In this document: piece after piece, positions 1 to 37,480 of the stretch
Layout of the letters: every line of letters begins with the position of its first letter
How positions within the stretch are numbered: position 1 is the first letter of the stretch
Source of the DNA: an uncultured Gammaproteobacteria bacterium
Lineage (GTDB): Bacteria > Patescibacteriota > Microgenomatia > Levybacterales > GWA1-39-11
Assembly (NCBI GenBank): GCA_964537315.1
Contig: CAZIAP010000002.1
Span: 1-41,236, forward strand
Length of the DNA: 41,236 bases
Reading direction: 5' to 3'
The notes under the pieces: generated by a model
Told to the model about the DNA's origin: nothing
Databases searched by the model: none
Seen by the model: only the letters and a program-made list of their open reading frames with translations
Made by a program: the position numbers and the translations under genes

Positions 1-54
1 AACTCACATCAGAGGATCCGCAATCCCCCATTCTATCCGTTGAACTACAGGAGC
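1..54 (-). tRNA. tRNA-Arg(GCG), 3' end cut off by window edge
   Basis: Reverse complement reads GCTCCTG-TA-GTTC-AACGGATA-GAAT-G-GGGGA-TT[GCG]GA-TCCTC-TGAT-GTGAG-TT. D-arm, anticodon arm and start of the T-arm fold normally, and the Arg identity base A20 is present. Confidence 0.85.
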
Positions 55-2012: not shown

Positions 2013-2082
2013 TTGCGGGGCAAGGAGTTGAACCTTGTCTGCGAGATTATGAGCCTCGCGTGCAGCCGTACACTACCCCGCT
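2013..2082 (-). tRNA. tRNA-Met(CAT), initiator-like; CCA not encoded
   Basis: AGCGGGG/CCCCGCA-A acceptor stem with a 1:72 mismatch; CGAGG-CT[CAT]AA-TCTCG anticodon arm; CAAGG-TTCAACT-CCTTG T-arm. TTGACA-17-GATAAT promoter at 2126..2098. Confidence 0.9.
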
Positions 2083-2919: not shown

Positions 2920-3309
2920 TTACTCTAACTCTTTCGCCAAAACTTCAGCTTCAAAGAAGTTGGGGTCAATAAACAAAGCTTTATCAATAAATTCTCTAGC
3001 TTTATTATTCTCACTTAAACGAGCAGCATAGACGGCCGCTTCGTAATAAGCTGCAGGGAACTGTGGATACTTAGCGATTACTGACTCCCAGTACGACAAG
3101 CTTTCTTGATATTCCTGCTGAACCTGCATGTTTGCACGGTAATCCTTAAATGTCTCATAAAATAGCATTCCTAATGTTGCGGTAAAAGAAACCATAAATA
3201 CGGTAATAAATATACCTAAGCTTTGCATAAATTGAGGTCTAGTAAAACGAGTTTGGATTCTTTGCGGTAATACAGCGGCAAATATGCGGGAATAAGTACG
3301 TTTGGGCAT
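2920..3309 (-). CDS. Hypothetical membrane-anchored protein with C-terminal TPR-like helices
   Basis: One TM segment, then YPQFPAAYYEAA..KALFIDP. Start at 3309 is supported by TTGACA(3344-3339)-17-TATAAT(3321-3316)-6-ATG. Confidence 0.7.
   Translation of the reverse strand: MPKRTYSRIFAAVLPQRIQTRFTRPQFMQSLGIFITVFMVSFTATLGMLFYETFKDYRANMQVQQEYQESLSYWESVIAKYPQFPAAYYEAAVYAARLSENNKAREFIDKALFIDPNFFEAEVLAKELE
3263..3294 (+). repeat. 32-bp tripartite repeat, copy 1 (TGCGGTAATAC AGCGGCAAATA TGCGGGAATA)
   Basis: Aligns with copies at 5494, 6145 and 6853. Lies inside codons 6-16 of the 2920..3309 gene. Confidence 0.85.
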
Positions 3310-3315
3310 ACCTGC

Positions 3316-3376
3316 ATTATATATCGTGTCTAATATTCTGTCAAAATTTGACAAAAGACTCATTTCAACGTATAAC
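3316..3376. promoter_or_regulatory. Back-to-back sigma70 promoters
   Basis: Plus: TTGACA 3348-3353, 17 bp, TATAAC 3371-3376 (glmS leader). Minus: TTGACA 3344-3339, 17 bp, TATAAT 3321-3316. The two -35 boxes form the palindrome TGTCAA-AAT-TTGACA. Confidence 0.8.
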
Positions 3377-3409
3377 TGTATGAAAGTATAGGTTGCTCAT
3401 TGTTTAACA

Positions 3410-3590
3410 GGCGTGTAGTCCCGACGTTACGTCGGGAAACGAGGAGAAGGGTCCGAAGTAACATCGGACAATCGGACGTCCGAAGTAACATCGGACAGTA
3501 TTTGCGGAAACCTTCAGGGTGTAGTACCATCCTAAAATATTCTGACAAAGCAAAATCGCAAGGTTTTGAATAAAACAGTATATGCGTACT
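3410..3590 (+). ncRNA. glmS ribozyme/riboswitch, variant with two hairpin insertions
   Basis: Upstream of glmS. P1 3419-3437; ACGAGG 3439-3444; P2 GAAGG/CCTTC; ATCG 3471-3474; GCGG 3504-3507; P3 AGGGTG/CATCCT; P3.1 AGTAC/GTACT(3586-3590); GACAAAG; P4.1 CAAAATC-GCAA-GGTTTTG with a GNRA loop. Confidence 0.85.
3451..3497 (+). repeat. Two identical palindromic 20-mers GTCCGAAGTAACATCGGACA (3451-3470 and 3478-3497)
   Basis: Exact direct repeat with a 27-bp period; each copy folds as GTCCGA-7-TCGGAC. Confidence 0.95.
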
Positions 3591-3734
3591 CTCCTATACT
3601 TCTTAAGTTTTTATTCGTTGAGCATTATAGTTTAAGACGTTCTAAGGGTTTAGAACAGGCGGCGAACGTGACTACTCACGAATCGTGGATCTTTACTGTA
3701 ACCGTTTAACTTATATTTACCAATTAAATCTAAT

Positions 3735-5492
3735 ATGTGCGGAATATTCGGTTATTTAGGTGATCAAACCAATGCGGGAAACTTAGTCCTTGATGGGCTA
3801 AAATCACTGGAATACAGGGGTTACGACTCTTGGGGAGTTGTAGTAAAGCAGCAAAACCGAAAACTACACATTGAGAAACATGTAGGCAAAATTGGTGATG
3901 CTACTCTTCCTTTACTTAAATCTTCTTCAGGAATTGGCCATACTCGATGGGCAACTCACGGCGGAGTTACAGAATCGAATTCTCATCCTCATCTGGACTG
4001 CAACCGTGAAATCATTATTGTTCACAATGGAATCATAGAAAATTATGCGGAACTAAAACAGAAACTACAGAGTAAGCATAGATATCTTTCAGAAACAGAC
4101 TCTGAAGTCTTTGCACACTTAGTCGAAGAAAAAATTATCAATGGAATGGATCTTCCACAAGCTGTTCTGGATACATTTACCCAAACTAAGGGATTGAGCG
4201 CAATTATTGTCTACCAGCCGAATACTGATAAATTTGTTGCTATCAAGAATGGGTCTCCACTTGTTTTCGGTACAAAAGATCAAGAGTTTTTCCTTGCGTC
4301 TGATAGTGCGGCATTAACTCCACATACCAACAAAGTCCACTTTCTTGAGGATAATGAACTACTTACTATATCTCGAAGTGGTTACCAGGTATATGACTTA
4401 AAACTCAACCCCAAAACTATTTCATTCATCACCTTGGAGTACTCATCTACTGATATAAACCTCGGTAAATACCCGCATTTCATGATGAAAGAAATACACG
4501 AACAGCCGTTTATTCTACGTAAGATAGTCCAAGAGCAGGAATCTAATATACAAAAGGCAGCTACTGTCATACAAAAGGCATATGGTACTTATTTCCTAGG
4601 CTGTGGGACAGCATACTATGCCGGACTTGCTGGAACATATCTATTCTCTAAAATTGCTAAAAAACATGTGAACGCCAGTGTGGGGTCAGAATTCACCTAC
4701 CACAAGGATTTTTTGCAAGACAAAAGCCTTGTTGTAGCACTCTCACAAAGTGGAGAGACCATTGATATCATCTCAAGCATTAAAGATGCAAAAGAAAAAA
4801 AAGCCAAGATTATGGCGATAACCAATGTACTTGGTTCTACACTATACCGTATGGCAGACCACAGACTGCTTCTCACAGCAGGTCCTGAAAAAGGTGTCCT
4901 TGCAACTAAATCCTTTACCGCTAAGATCGCATACCTTTATCTGTTAGCACATGTACTAAACAAGAGCATTAAAACAGGTAAAACTAATATTCTAAAAGTT
5001 GCAGACGAGATAGAAAGACTGCTGACTAAAAAAGATTCTATTCATACACTCGCAAAGAAAGTTAAAAGTAGTCCACATATATTCATCTTAGGAAGAGGCA
5101 TGTCCTACCCCACTGCGCTTGAATCAGCATTAAAAATAAAAGAGGTGTCCTATATCCATGCAGAAGGATTCGCAGCTGGAGAATTGAAGCATGGTGTGAT
5201 TGCGCTTATTGAAAAAGGCACACCTGTAATAGTCTTTAATCCAGAAGATGAAACATACGAAGACACACTCAATGCTGCACATGAGGTAAAAGCACGAGGA
5301 GCGAATATTATCGGTATCTCGAGCAAAAAACACGAGGTATACGATACGTTTATTCCCATAAGCAATTGCGGAGATGCAACAATAATACCGCACGTTGTGG
5401 TAGCACAACTCCTGGGGTATTACCTAGCGATAGAGCTTGGTAATGATCCTGATAAGCCAAGAAATCTGGCAAAGAGTGTAACTGTAAAGTAG
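3735..5492 (+). CDS. glmS: Glutamine-fructose-6-phosphate aminotransferase
   Basis: MCGIFG N-terminal catalytic Cys; LEYRGYDS, GHTRWATHG, SQSGET and DKPRNLAKSVTV motifs. Confidence 0.98.
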   Translation: MCGIFGYLGDQTNAGNLVLDGLKSLEYRGYDSWGVVVKQQNRKLHIEKHVGKIGDATLPLLKSSSGIGHTRWATHGGVTESNSHPHLDCNREIIIVHNGIIENYAELKQKLQSKHRYLSETDSEVFAHLVEEKIINGMDLPQAVLDTFTQTKGLSAIIVYQPNTDKFVAIKNGSPLVFGTKDQEFFLASDSAALTPHTNKVHFLEDNELLTISRSGYQVYDLKLNPKTISFITLEYSSTDINLGKYPHFMMKEIHEQPFILRKIVQEQESNIQKAATVIQKAYGTYFLGCGTAYYAGLAGTYLFSKIAKKHVNASVGSEFTYHKDFLQDKSLVVALSQSGETIDIISSIKDAKEKKAKIMAITNVLGSTLYRMADHRLLLTAGPEKGVLATKSFTAKIAYLYLLAHVLNKSIKTGKTNILKVADEIERLLTKKDSIHTLAKKVKSSPHIFILGRGMSYPTALESALKIKEVSYIHAEGFAAGELKHGVIALIEKGTPVIVFNPEDETYEDTLNAAHEVKARGANIIGISSKKHEVYDTFIPISNCGDATIIPHVVVAQLLGYYLAIELGNDPDKPRNLAKSVTVK

Positions 5493-5545: not shown

Positions 5546-6163
5546 ATGGAAGAATTTATATCAGAAGAATTAGCTCGTTCTCCAGAACTGCCCCGTAAAG
5601 AATATAATAAAGTCCTTGTTGTCTTTGCAGGTGCTCCAGGCTGCGGTAAAACTACCTTAGCAACCATTCTCAATAAACACAGTAACGTTTTAATGTTGGA
5701 TGTAGACGCTGCTAAGAGGGAATTAAAAAGTAAAATGGAATTCGATAGTGACTCAGAGGCAATGCAAGCTGCTTACGCATATAATCACACCTTGGCCCGC
5801 AAAGCACTTGATGAAGGAAGATCAGTATCTTTAGTCGCAACCTATTCTAGACCTAGTTACCAAGAGGATGCGATGTCACTTGCATTATCTACCGAAACCC
5901 CCATGGTTGTATTTAATGTAGAAGGTTCTGAAGATAAAGTTAGAGAGACACTAAGAAAACGACAAGAAAATCCTAATGAGTTATCAGACGTAACTACGTA
6001 TGAACACCACTTGGAAGTAAAAAACAGACTTCAGAAATTTCAACATGATCAAGCAGTAGACATTCACACAGAAGGCAACACGCCACAAGAGACGTTTGCT
6101 AAAGTGCAATCTGCTCTACAACCGTATGAGCAAAAAGAATACTCTGCGGTAATAGCGCGTTAA
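5546..6163 (+). CDS. P-loop small-molecule kinase (AAA_33-like)
   Basis: Walker A GAPGCGKT, DVDAAKREL and lid LRKRQ. TATACT lies 6 nt before the ATG. Confidence 0.75.
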   Translation: MEEFISEELARSPELPRKEYNKVLVVFAGAPGCGKTTLATILNKHSNVLMLDVDAAKRELKSKMEFDSDSEAMQAAYAYNHTLARKALDEGRSVSLVATYSRPSYQEDAMSLALSTETPMVVFNVEGSEDKVRETLRKRQENPNELSDVTTYEHHLEVKNRLQKFQHDQAVDIHTEGNTPQETFAKVQSALQPYEQKEYSAVIAR

Positions 6164-6885: not shown

Positions 6886-8985
6886 TTATCGAGATGGCCA
6901 TGGTGAAATAATTAACAACTCTTCTGTTAATCCGAGCTGTTTATTTATTTCCTCTGTTACAAATGGCATAAAAGGATGAAGAAGCGTTAACATCACTAAG
7001 TATAAGGAGCTCAAAACAGTGAATGAGTCTTCATCGATTCGATTTTTTACATCCTCAATATATATATCTGCAAATTCATGCCATGCAAAATCATATAAAT
7101 TTTGTGATGCATGATTAAAATCATACCTATCTAGTAGCCTAGTCACATTGTCAACTAACTCGCTCATCTTTTTAATCATTTCTTTATCATTTTTATGCTT
7201 TGCTACTTTTTCCAATTCAGTCAGTGAACTGTGAACTGTGAACTGTAAATCATCAGGTCTCTTCATTTCTATAAATCTCCCCATATTCCACAACTTGTTC
7301 GTAAATTTACGCATTGCATCAAGCTTGGGATAAGACAATGACTGATCATGTCCTAAAGCTGTACCATACACTAAAGCAAACCTAACAGCATCAGCGCCAT
7401 ACTGCTCGACTACCTCTAGTGGATTAACCACGTTGCCTTTGGATTTACTCATTTTCTTTCCTAACGGATCATTGACTAGCCCGTGCAGGACAATGTCTGA
7501 AAATGGCTTTTGACCTGTTACATAATAACCAAGCATCACCATACGTGATACCCAAGCACGTAATATGTCATAGCCTGTTTCCATCACGCTTGTCGGATAA
7601 AACTTTTCATAATCTCCATCTTGAGTAGTCTGCAAGGTAGCAAACGGCCACTGCCCAGATGAAAACCATGTATCAAAAGTGTCTGTGTCTTGTTCCCAAT
7701 CTCCCCCCTCCGGCACTTCTCCTTCAGTCACAACCCACTCACCAGTATGAACATTACGCCAAGCTGGGATACGAATTCCCCAGACAATTTGACGCGAAAT
7801 GTTCCAGTCTCTAAGATTTTCTAACCACTGACGATAATGAATCTCAAAGTTGGCAGGGTGAATTTTAATTTCTTTGTCCTCAACAGCTTTAAGCGCTTTT
7901 TCTGTTAATGGTTTTACTTTTACAAACCATTGTTCTCGAGGAAGAGGTTCAATAATATTTTTACACTTGTAACACAACCCTACACGGTGCGTATATTCCT
8001 CATCAATTTTCTCAATGAGACCCTTCGACTGCATTTCTTCTACAATTGCCTTTCTTGCCTGTTTTGCATAAAGACCAGCAAATTTACCAGCATGATCATT
8101 CATTTTTCCGTCATAGCCAATGACTTGCTTTAGGGGTAAATTATGTCGTTGTGATACCTCAAAATCATTAAAATCGTGTGCCGGGGTAATTTTAACTACT
8201 CCGGTTCCGAATTCAGGATCAACCATTTCATCACCTACAACTGTTATCTTTGCAGGTCCAAGAACAGTCTGAATATCAATCGTCTTTCCAATGTATTGAG
8301 TGTATCTTGGATCTTTTGGATTAACTGCCACAGCTGTATCGCCGAATTTTGTTTCGGGCCGAGTAGTTGCAAGGACTAATGGTCCGTATTTTATGTAATA
8401 TAGTGGGCTTCTTCTTTCTTCATATACTACCTCAAGGTCAGAAAATGAGGTACCATCAAACGTACAATAATTAACCAATCTTTCTGCTCTGTAAATAAGC
8501 CCATCATCATACATTTTTTTGAATGTTCTATGAACAACGCTTACTATTTCTTCATCTAATGTAAACTTTGCTCTACTCCAATCTAAGGAAAAACCCAATT
8601 TACGTAGCTGATCTTCCATTCCTCCTTTATTTTCTTGAACATAGTCCCATATCATCGTATACAATGTGTCTCTGTCATAATCAAAGCGGGTTTTTCCTTT
8701 TTCCTGGAGTTTTTTTTCAAAAACAAACTGAGTTTCAAACCCAGCATGATCTGCGCCTGGCACCCACAGAGCTGCATGTCCTTGCATCCTTTTAAAACGA
8801 ACTAAGATATCTTCTAGCACCATCATTGCATGTCCAAAATGAAGTGAGCCATTTGCATTTGGTGGGGGAAGAATTATAGTATAAGGTTTACCTTCAGGGT
8901 TTACTTCAGGTTTAAAATATTCATTTTTTACCCAAGAGTCATAAATTGATTTTTCAACCAATTTGTGGTCGTATGCTTTATCCAT
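6886..8985 (-). CDS. valS: Valine-tRNA ligase (short form)
   Basis: PPPNANGSLHFGH, DWNISRQIVWG, DTFDTWFSSG and KMSKS motifs. Confidence 0.97.
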   Translation of the reverse strand: MDKAYDHKLVEKSIYDSWVKNEYFKPEVNPEGKPYTIILPPPNANGSLHFGHAMMVLEDILVRFKRMQGHAALWVPGADHAGFETQFVFEKKLQEKGKTRFDYDRDTLYTMIWDYVQENKGGMEDQLRKLGFSLDWSRAKFTLDEEIVSVVHRTFKKMYDDGLIYRAERLVNYCTFDGTSFSDLEVVYEERRSPLYYIKYGPLVLATTRPETKFGDTAVAVNPKDPRYTQYIGKTIDIQTVLGPAKITVVGDEMVDPEFGTGVVKITPAHDFNDFEVSQRHNLPLKQVIGYDGKMNDHAGKFAGLYAKQARKAIVEEMQSKGLIEKIDEEYTHRVGLCYKCKNIIEPLPREQWFVKVKPLTEKALKAVEDKEIKIHPANFEIHYRQWLENLRDWNISRQIVWGIRIPAWRNVHTGEWVVTEGEVPEGGDWEQDTDTFDTWFSSGQWPFATLQTTQDGDYEKFYPTSVMETGYDILRAWVSRMVMLGYYVTGQKPFSDIVLHGLVNDPLGKKMSKSKGNVVNPLEVVEQYGADAVRFALVYGTALGHDQSLSYPKLDAMRKFTNKLWNMGRFIEMKRPDDLQFTVHSSLTELEKVAKHKNDKEMIKKMSELVDNVTRLLDRYDFNHASQNLYDFAWHEFADIYIEDVKNRIDEDSFTVLSSLYLVMLTLLHPFMPFVTEEINKQLGLTEELLIISPWPSR
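7224..7244. repeat. Heptamer tandem repeat (GTGAACT)x3 inside valS
   Basis: Three exact 7-bp units, 21 bp in total, so the reading frame is kept. Confidence 0.85.
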
Positions 8986-37177: not shown

Positions 37178-37480
37178 TCCGCGATAGCTCAATGGTAGAG
37201 CAGGTCGCTGTAGCACTTTTTTTGCAGCCTTCCGAAGCAATTCGGAAAGGAAAAATGGGGTGAATTCAGGGAAGTCCTGAAATGGATAATCCTGAGCCGA
37301 GCTTGATGAATGGTATCAAAGTAATCAAGAAGGTGCAGAGACTAGAAGTGAGGAACCAATCCAATAAGCTTCATTAGCGCCCCACATCCTAAATTAGGAT
37401 GATGAGATAGTCCACGCTTTCTGGTAACAGGGAGATAAAGTGTAACGACAAGGTTCTAGGTTCGAATCCTAGTCGCGGAG
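37178..37480 (+). tRNA. tRNA-Asn(GTT) split by a group I intron; exons 37178-37211 and 37443-37480
   Basis: Joined exons give TCCGCGA/TCGCGGA-G acceptor stem, GGTCG-CT[GTT]AA-CGACA anticodon arm and a GGTTCGAATCC T-arm. Confidence 0.92.
37212..37442 (+). ncRNA. Group I self-splicing intron (IC3-like), 231 nt, no homing endonuclease
   Basis: IGS GCAGC (37224-37228) pairs with exon GCTGT with a U.G at the splice site. P3 GGGGTG/CGCCCC; P4 TTCAGG/CCTGAG; R GTGCAGAGACTAG; S GAGATAGTCC; P7 GACTA/TAGTC; terminal G at 37442. Confidence 0.92.

Follow-up and report, generated by a model that had tools for sequence, protein, structure and literature searches.

How much added structure can the core of a glmS ribozyme hold and still be a glmS ribozyme? 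This ribozyme is the textbook case of a metabolite acting as a ribozyme cofactor, and its double-pseudoknot core is regarded as compact and nearly invariant. The question is raised by positions 3410-3590 of contig CAZIAP010000002.1 (GenBank assembly GCA_964537315.1), of which the whole stretch analysed, 41,236 nucleotides (nt) long, is called the window below. There, two identical hairpins sit on either side of a short strand in the middle of the core. The initial annotation, made from the sequence letters, left three options open: an active variant that tolerates insertions, a ribozyme with an altered ligand response, or a decaying one. The comparison reported here makes it probable that the element is a working, glucosamine-6-phosphate (GlcN6P)-dependent ribozyme in the glmS 5' leader of a Roizmanbacteria-like bacterium of the candidate phyla radiation (CPR), and that it represents a lineage-wide subtype with two hairpins in its core.

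The identity of the element relies on a covariance-model match and on its gene context. A scan of the whole window with the Rfam glmS model (RF00234) gave a match at 3399-3593 on the plus strand, scoring 52.4 bits (gathering threshold 37, E 1.8e-9), with model positions 1-167 all aligned and a 43-nt insert absorbed inside the P2 loop region. The end of this match is followed, after 142 nt, by the start of an open reading frame (ORF) on the same strand. This ORF is assigned to GlmS because class-II glutamine amidotransferase and SIS domains are both present, and its nearest named homologues belong to Candidatus Roizmanbacteria, a CPR lineage. The strand at the predicted cleavage site, from the letters and the Rfam alignment, reads G3410/GCGUGUAG.

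3410-3411 (+): predicted self-cleavage site, between G(-1) at 3410 and G1 at 3411, by homology with A(-1)/G1 of the RF00234 alignment.
3735-5492 (+): glmS, the regulated gene, glutamine--fructose-6-phosphate aminotransferase of 585 amino acids (aa); Pfam SIS (5.5e-50) and class-II GATase domains, homologues named GlmS.

The two hairpins, which the initial annotation had rightly read as identical 19-nt copies flanking ATCG at 3471-3474, lie within a 20-nt direct repeat (3451-3470 and 3478-3497, 100% identical). Folded by itself, either copy gives a 6-bp stem, GUCCGA/UCGGAC, at -7.0 kcal/mol. The 19-mer occurs in the 41-kb window as this single pair, and 0 copies are expected there by chance. 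The UCG at 3472-3474 is the sole free UCG, and CGA stands at 3440-3442; U3472 of the UCG is the equivalent of the ligand-contacting U.

3451-3469 (+): first inserted hairpin (hp1), in place of the canonical J2/2.1 linker and abutting P2; fold -7.0 kcal/mol, with a hairpin here in all 30 cores compared below.
3470-3477 (+): conserved strand AAUCGGAC between the hairpins, homologous to canonical AUCGA; UCG 3472-3474 is the predicted P2.1 3' strand, complementary to CGA 3440-3442.
3478-3496 (+): second inserted hairpin (hp2), an exact copy of hp1, splitting the canonical 4-5-nt loop between P2.1 and P2.2; hairpin here in all 30 cores.

In the canonical core, P2.1 consists of C28-G45, G29-C44 and A30-U43 with an A27 triple (numbering of PMC7125110 and PMC11602151). 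A 4-nt loop (47-50) then links P2.1 to P2.2, which runs from C2-G56 to C5-G53 and is followed by a bulged A6 (same numbering), while residues 43-45 lie in the cofactor pocket (PMC7125110). Since the UCG is free only between the hairpins, and with ACGAGG, GCGGA and P2 placed, hp1 replaces J2/2.1 and hp2 interrupts the P2.1-P2.2 loop. Unpaired linkers are more tolerant of mutation than the core helices (PMC11602151), and loop 47-50 is itself tolerant (PMC7125110). The compact core, with a short single-stranded J2/2.1 and a 4-nt P2.1-P2.2 loop, is not kept in the window; compactness is a consensus feature and no formal criterion of the family. The strands of P2 are 60 nt apart here, against about 24 in insert-free relatives such as L018.

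A first concern with an exact repeat is misassembly. The sequence, identical hairpins included, was matched without difference in contigs of four bioreactor-metagenome runs, all of one study and possibly including the window's own sample, and this exact reproduction rules out an assembly artefact. Three of these runs have contigs ending at 3497-3536, where depth rises from about 25 to 88; these breaks arise because the conserved 3' core is common to co-occurring relatives while the hairpins differ. Logan contigs L002, L004, L005, L007 and L008 begin right after hp2, and the same fragmentation during assembly explains them.

What decides between an accident and a maintained structure is whether relatives hold hairpins at the same places. 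A pattern drawn from the conserved flanks retrieved 33 contigs in a metagenome scan, 30 of them genuine and three being chance matches in coding DNA. After addition of the window and of L063, found by scanning genomes, the set comprised 30 distinct two-hairpin cores, aligned with MAFFT (alignment A1). The pattern fixed ACGAGGAG, ATCGGAC and TGCGGRAACC, so that invariance at these places, P2.1 included, is by construction. Both sites hold a hairpin in all 30 cores, which come from metagenomic contigs of Roizmanbacteria-like and Wirthbacteria-like type; the hairpin sequences are unrelated, and every relative has AAUCGGAC between its hairpins. The closest relatives fetched with a complete leader, L001 and L006 (GlmS 87% and 74% identical), also have their hairpins at these sites; the hairpin sequences differ entirely, and the flanking core is nearly identical. 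The cores span GlmS identities down to about 45%, and 29 of them are followed, 105-273 nt downstream, by an ORF starting MCG, as GlmS does, and full-length where the contig permits; the contig of the remaining one, L093, is too short to score.

The stems covary. In hp1, all four outer pairs counted show changes on both sides and 95.8% of alignment cells are paired; in hp2 the same is true of all six outer pairs, with 86.9% of cells paired, hp2 being very weak in L094 and L103. Overall, pairing reaches 94.3% of cells, against 75.6% in column shuffles and 31-55% (maximum 54.5%) when the partners are slid by 1-3 columns. Stem sequence, loop sequence and length all vary (hp1 17-34 nt, hp2 10-27 nt). 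Because they are conserved in position and show compensatory changes in all 10 counted pairs, the hairpins are neither accident nor decay, and the alignment indicates that they are under selection for position and pairing alone. The collection of homologues for covariation that had been suggested thus yielded compensatory changes in hp1, hp2, P1, P2 and pair 7-62.

These data bear directly on the possibility of a decaying or repeat-disrupted ribozyme, in which a short palindromic repeat would have landed twice in the core. Two identical, near-palindromic 19-mers do resemble a dispersed repeat, and the Rfam score is moderate. Yet a dispersed or mobile palindromic repeat was rejected, the 19-mer having no further copy in the window, and hairpins occur at exactly these sites, covarying, in all 30 cores, while every core nucleotide and the accessory domain are intact. 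Decay is, therefore, extremely improbable, and the proposal of a decaying ribozyme was dropped. Among the three options, the insertion-tolerant active variant is the one that best fits the 30 cores, the 10 compensatory stem pairs and the glmS context.

An active variant should hold the nucleotides needed for catalysis and for ligand binding. GlcN6P is contacted by G1 and C2, by the U within UCG and by the second guanine of GCGG, and the window has all of these. The core nucleotides found are G1 C2 G3 at 3411-3413, A-CGA-GG at 3439-3444, UCG at 3472-3474 and GCGG-A at 3504-3508. Single mutants of G1, C2, G3, A27, C28, G56 and G57 fail to cleave (PMC7125110), and the window retains the equivalents of all seven. 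C2 and G56 help to build the active site, and the UCG strand lines the cofactor pocket (PMC7125110).

3439-3444 (+): conserved ACGAGG, with the base-triple A at 3439, the P2.1 5' strand CGA at 3440-3442 and the equivalent of the active-site guanine at 3444; Rfam consensus GACGAGG. The roles of A27 and C28 follow PMC7125110, in which residues 28-30 make up the active site, and G42 of Bacillus subtilis, the active-site guanine, corresponds to G40 of Thermoanaerobacter tengcongensis (PMC11602151). The invariance of ACGAGG among relatives is imposed by the search pattern.
3412-3417 (+): P2.2 5' strand C2 G3 U4 G5 (U6 bulged) A7, with partners 3506, 3505, 3504, 3503 and 3502; pair counts from the 30 cores.
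3497-3508 (+): AGUAU linker, P2.2 3' strand U3502 U3503 G3504 C3505 G3506, then, in the cofactor pocket, G3507 and A3508; Rfam alignment to UCGgCGGa and pair counts. G56 and G57 mutants show no cleavage (PMC7125110), and A68 is close to the cofactor (PMC11602151).

The P2.2 helix had been described as rewired, with the pairs G-C, U.G, G.U, U-A (3416-3500) and A-U (3417-3499). The first three hold; the last two, possible in the window sequence, fail in the relatives, where covariation is absent from them and 10 cells have no pair. The canonical bulged register was, therefore, preferred over them. It reads C2-G, G3-C, Y4-G, R5-U, bulged N6 and R7-Y, and is paired in 98.9% of cells across the 30 cores, with CG 30; GC 30; UG 26 and CG 4; GU 26 and AU 4; GC 22, AU 7 and other 1 as the pair types. 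Pair 7-62 is compensatory (G-C in 22, A-U in seven including the window, unpaired in one), and positions 4 and 5 change jointly from UG to CA facing a constant UG partner, that is, from wobble to Watson-Crick pairs. By these counts P2.2 keeps the canonical register with its one-nucleotide bulge and has not been rewired. The subtype departs from the consensus mainly at pair 5-63, which is poorly conserved in canonical ribozymes (PMC7125110).

The departures close to the pocket are what would favor an altered ligand response, whether to another amino sugar, with another affinity or through ligand-independent cleavage, resulting from the changed core geometry and G(-1). The window has G(-1) for A(-1), pairs 4-64 and 5-63 are U.G and G.U instead of C-G and C-G, and the variant-specific conserved GGAC and AGNAU adjoin the pocket. 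Against this, the residues that contact the ligand are all in place, the regulated gene is glmS in all 29 scorable cores, pair 5-63 is variable in canonical ribozymes as well (PMC7125110), and the ribozyme proved difficult to re-target by in-vitro selection (PMC1635283). An altered response, which had been suggested, found no support, the ligand-contacting residues being kept, and is considered very unlikely.

The rest of the ribozyme is as expected for the family, and the earlier statement that all peripheral glmS elements are recognisable agrees with the Rfam alignment for P1, P2, P3 and P4/P4.1, and with complementarity for P3.1.

3419-3437 (+): P1 hairpin, UCCCGAC, GUUAC, GUCGGGA; Rfam alignment and inverted repeat, with 5 of 6 P1 pairs covarying in relatives.
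3446-3450 (+): P2 5' strand GAAGG, partner CCUUC at 3511-3515; Rfam alignment.
3516-3590 (+): accessory domain, with P3 (3516-3521/3528-3533), P4 (3537-3543/3577-3583), P4.1 (3551-3557/3562-3568), A-rich internal loops and a GCAA tetraloop (3558-3561); Rfam alignment.
3523-3527 and 3586-3590 (+): P3.1 pseudoknot, AGUAC with GUACU; complementarity by reading, the pseudoknot not being representable in the Rfam model.

In the alignment of the 30 cores P2 has no unpaired cell, and covariation is seen in two of its five pairs (AU 22, GC 7, UA 1; AU 23, GC 7). An apparent strand swap in the P4 internal loop (5' ACAAAG, 3' AAUAAAA) was discarded, as both strands are A-rich and fit the consensus positions of AAA and ACAAAG.

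Set beside the canonical ribozymes (RF00234; Bacillus subtilis, B. anthracis, Thermoanaerobacter tengcongensis), the subtype shares the site in the glmS 5' leader, G1 C2 G3, ACGAGG, a UCG complementary to CGA (predicted P2.1), GCGGA and P2. Also common to both are P2.2 with a one-nucleotide bulge at position 6, P1, P3, P3.1, P4, P4.1, the A-rich internal loops and a GNRA tetraloop. It differs in that the canonical J2/2.1 UUUA is replaced by a hairpin and RA, the 4-nt P2.1-P2.2 loop is split by the second hairpin between conserved GGAC and AGNAU, and canonical A56 is G. Further differences are pairs 4-64 and 5-63 (U.G and G.U, or C-G and A-U, against C-G and C-G), position -1 (A in 20 cores and G in 10, against consensus A) and an extra leader-tail helix around the RNA.

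This helix, here called P0, closes the entire ribozyme just beyond the limits of the Rfam model, and a promoter-like site lies upstream of it.

3348-3376 (+): promoter-like site, TTGACA at 3348-3353, a 17-nt spacer and TATAAC at 3371-3376; a reading of the sequence.
3384-3392 (+): P0 5' strand AAGUAUAGG, partner 3593-3601; 9-nt inverted repeat, 100% complementary, 200 nt apart.
3593-3601 (+): P0 3' strand CCUAUACUU; inverted repeat and comparison with relatives.

The GUAUAGG/CCUAUAC pairing is common to the window, L001, L006 and L112. Elsewhere the complementary sequences at the P0 site differ, such as AGCGGAU/AUCCGCU and GAUUUAAGC/GCUUAAGUC, and a comparable pairing is found in most relatives. 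When compared with shuffles, the duplex energy of P0 has a median z of -1.8, with 11 of 25 values below -2, which is a moderate signal. Through P0, the short 5' product of cleavage, about 28 nt long, would stay attached to the mRNA. The promoter-like site predicts a transcript start near 3383, just before P0, and the arrangement TTGACA-17-TATAAC / TAAACT also appears in L001 and L006. A scan for consensus promoters did not list TTGACA-17-TATAAC, its rule needing a T at position 6 of the -10 box. The palindromic TGTCAAAATTTGACA (within 3316-3376) holds two back-to-back -35 boxes, of which the plus-strand one belongs to TTGACA-17-TATAAC and faces the ribozyme. The minus-strand box is part of a sigma-70 site with a perfect 12/12 match (3344 to 3316), which points towards the TPR gene. 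As this minus-strand site lies within ORF 2920-3363, the TPR gene probably starts further down.

How widely is the two-hairpin core distributed, and do existing models find it? The cores fall into a Roizmanbacteria-like group with short GlmS and low GC, and a second group with GlmS of 638-645 aa, whose nearest named relative is Candidatus Wirthbacteria; a Wirthbacteria-type glmS leader has the same subtype (91 bits with R1, a covariance model built here). Among 80 GTDB-representative loci, insertions were found by nhmmer with three seeds in L063 and the 5'-truncated L013 only, and R1 added nothing beyond canonical Chloroflexota forms. In most sampled CPR glmS genes no ribozyme was detected within 700 nt upstream, including L009-L011, whose GlmS is 61-63% identical to that of the window. 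These three loci are recorded as 'uncultured Gammaproteobacteria'; named GlmS at that identity are mostly from Roizmanbacteria and none from Gammaproteobacteria, and the labels look wrong.

It had been feared that covariance models may miss the variant. Rfam finds the window with its hairpins in place, and 26 of the 30 cores score at or above threshold (43-82 bits), L109 with permissive filters alone. RF00234 is below threshold or silent in the other four (L095 35.1 bits, L120 32.8 bits, no match for L096 and L110). The subtype is, hence, mostly annotated as 'glmS' already, and a minority is lost. The Wirthbacteria-like contig of L096 also carries a SAM-I riboswitch (52.4 bits) and a sub-threshold T-box-like match (42 bits, threshold 93), at 2407-2529 and 5164-5346.

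Outside these groups, a close parallel is found in Anaerolineae (L122, L123), which likewise have two extra hairpins in the P2 loop region of the glmS core. There, J2/2.1 contains the two hairpins, both 5' of AUCG, and an uninterrupted AAUCGAACAGAUCGGCGGAUG follows, whereas the window subtype has one hairpin on each side of the P2.1 strand; their cleavage strand is the canonical A/GCGCCUGG, unlike that of the window. The Anaerolineae linker AAUCGAAC-AG-AUCGGCGG is homologous to AAUCGGAC[hp2]AGUAUCUGCGG of the subtype, and its being uninterrupted implies that hp2 was inserted between AC and AG of the homologous loop. Loci of Chloroflexia and Thermomicrobia have canonical cores without inserts.

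The identity of hp1 and hp2 is peculiar to the window, as the two differ in the relatives. Exact copies within one ribozyme were seen in three cases: hp1 and hp2 of the window (19/19), hp2 of L096, which contains the reverse complement of hp1 (18/18), and P1 of L117, equal to hp1 (17/17). This makes 3 of 90 comparisons within ribozymes, against 0 of 2610 between ribozymes. The simplest reading is that one hairpin was overwritten by its neighbour's copy; this looks recent in the window and appears to have happened independently in 3 of the 30 ribozymes. Such overwriting is tolerated because the stem alone matters.

Taken together, the element is a structural variant of a known ribozyme, neither a new kind nor a decaying one, and probably fully functional; cleavage, ligand and a bracing role for the hairpins are what we infer from sequence comparison. 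In the mechanism proposed, two single-stranded linkers beside the P2.1 3' strand would each have grown into a hairpin, leaving the double pseudoknot (P2, P2.1, P2.2), the nucleotides of the active site and cofactor pocket, and the accessory domain unchanged. GlcN6P would bind a preformed pocket and serve as the cofactor for cleavage at 3410/3411, and cleavage would lower glmS expression. The hairpins would be sequence-free structural struts, most likely stiffening or pre-organising the AAUCGGAC strand and so aiding the folding of the pseudoknot.

Several points weigh against this reading. The base at position -1 is G in the window where the consensus has A, a substitution shared with the other G-bearing cores (10 of 30). 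P2.1 is complementary and invariant in all 30 cores, and has no covariation, its invariance being forced by the retrieval pattern. By nearest-neighbour energies, a long helix between the two hairpins of the window is favored over two separate hairpins (-24.9 against -20.6 kcal/mol), and such a helix would keep the P2.1 strand far from the core. RNA runs containing the locus were searched for and none was found. Finally, full-text searches on glmS with CPR or Patescibacteria brought up no paper, and such variants may have been described earlier.

The long helix also feeds the remaining alternative, in which the hairpins are a regulatory add-on: pairing of hp1 with hp2, or of the hp1 5' arm with AUCGGAC, would sequester or displace the P2.1 strand, and activity would depend on a second input (temperature, a protein, folding kinetics) besides GlcN6P. 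In the window, the inter-hairpin helix is predicted to be 4.3 kcal/mol more stable and is the minimum-free-energy fold, hp1 and hp2 of L096 are perfectly complementary, and the 3' arm of the window hairpins, AUCGGAC, equals the conserved strand bearing P2.1. Inter-hairpin pairing, nevertheless, beats separate hairpins in only 3 of the 30 ribozymes, without significant enrichment over cross-ribozyme pairs (p = 0.07), and a family-wide hairpin-hairpin switch was rejected on these figures. L001 and L006 have two separate hairpins as their minimum-free-energy fold, the unconserved hairpin and loop sequences imply that there is no sequence-specific partner, and hairpin copying accounts for the three cases. 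Co-transcriptional folding should favor the local hairpins. The long helix of the window is, possibly, a misfolding liability or a curiosity, with no designed switch behind it, and a regulatory add-on is judged very unlikely. The same low standing is given to a broader proposal, by which the split two-hairpin core and P0 would define an undescribed glmS subclass in CPR/Wirthbacteria, with the hairpins as a folding gate, through alternative pairing or a bound protein, that adds a second input beside GlcN6P.

The surroundings of the working ribozyme favored here can be described briefly. The neighbours of glmS are genes for ribosomal protein L25/TL5 (2184-2879), a small TPR protein, an AAA_33 kinase-like protein (5546-6163) and leucyl-tRNA synthetase (6886-8985), and this gene order is kept in L001 and L006. 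A partial tRNA (1-54, minus strand) lies at the window edge, and a tRNA-Met(CAT) at 2013-2082 (minus strand). Further away, a group I intron (Rfam, 37202-37434, 100.4 bits) stands in the anticodon loop of a tRNA gene (window 37180-37480), with flanks TCCGCGATAGCTCAATGGTAGAGCAGGTCGCT and TGTAACGACAAGGTTCTAGGTTCGAATCCTAGTCGCGGA. The loop around it, read by eye as CU/UGUAA (the slash marking the intron), suggests a tRNA-Thr(UGU), with no ARAGORN call. Another group I intron lies close to a tRNA in L109 (8046-8307).

The function of the element is unchanged by these findings; what changes is the picture of its core, where the strand lining the cofactor pocket tolerates a full helix on either side, and these helices are maintained by selection in 30 mostly metagenomic representatives of deep-branching bacteria with tiny genomes. 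The subtype marks sites at which the core can be expanded, which may be used for engineering or as handles in crystallography or cryo-electron microscopy (cryo-EM). It also constitutes a natural experiment in which peripheral struts may substitute for the accessory domain in folding, or add to it, and identifies family members that the standard model fails to detect (4 of 30). The linker shared with Anaerolineae and the canonical cores of other Chloroflexota may be relevant to the spread of the ribozyme between Chloroflexota and CPR.

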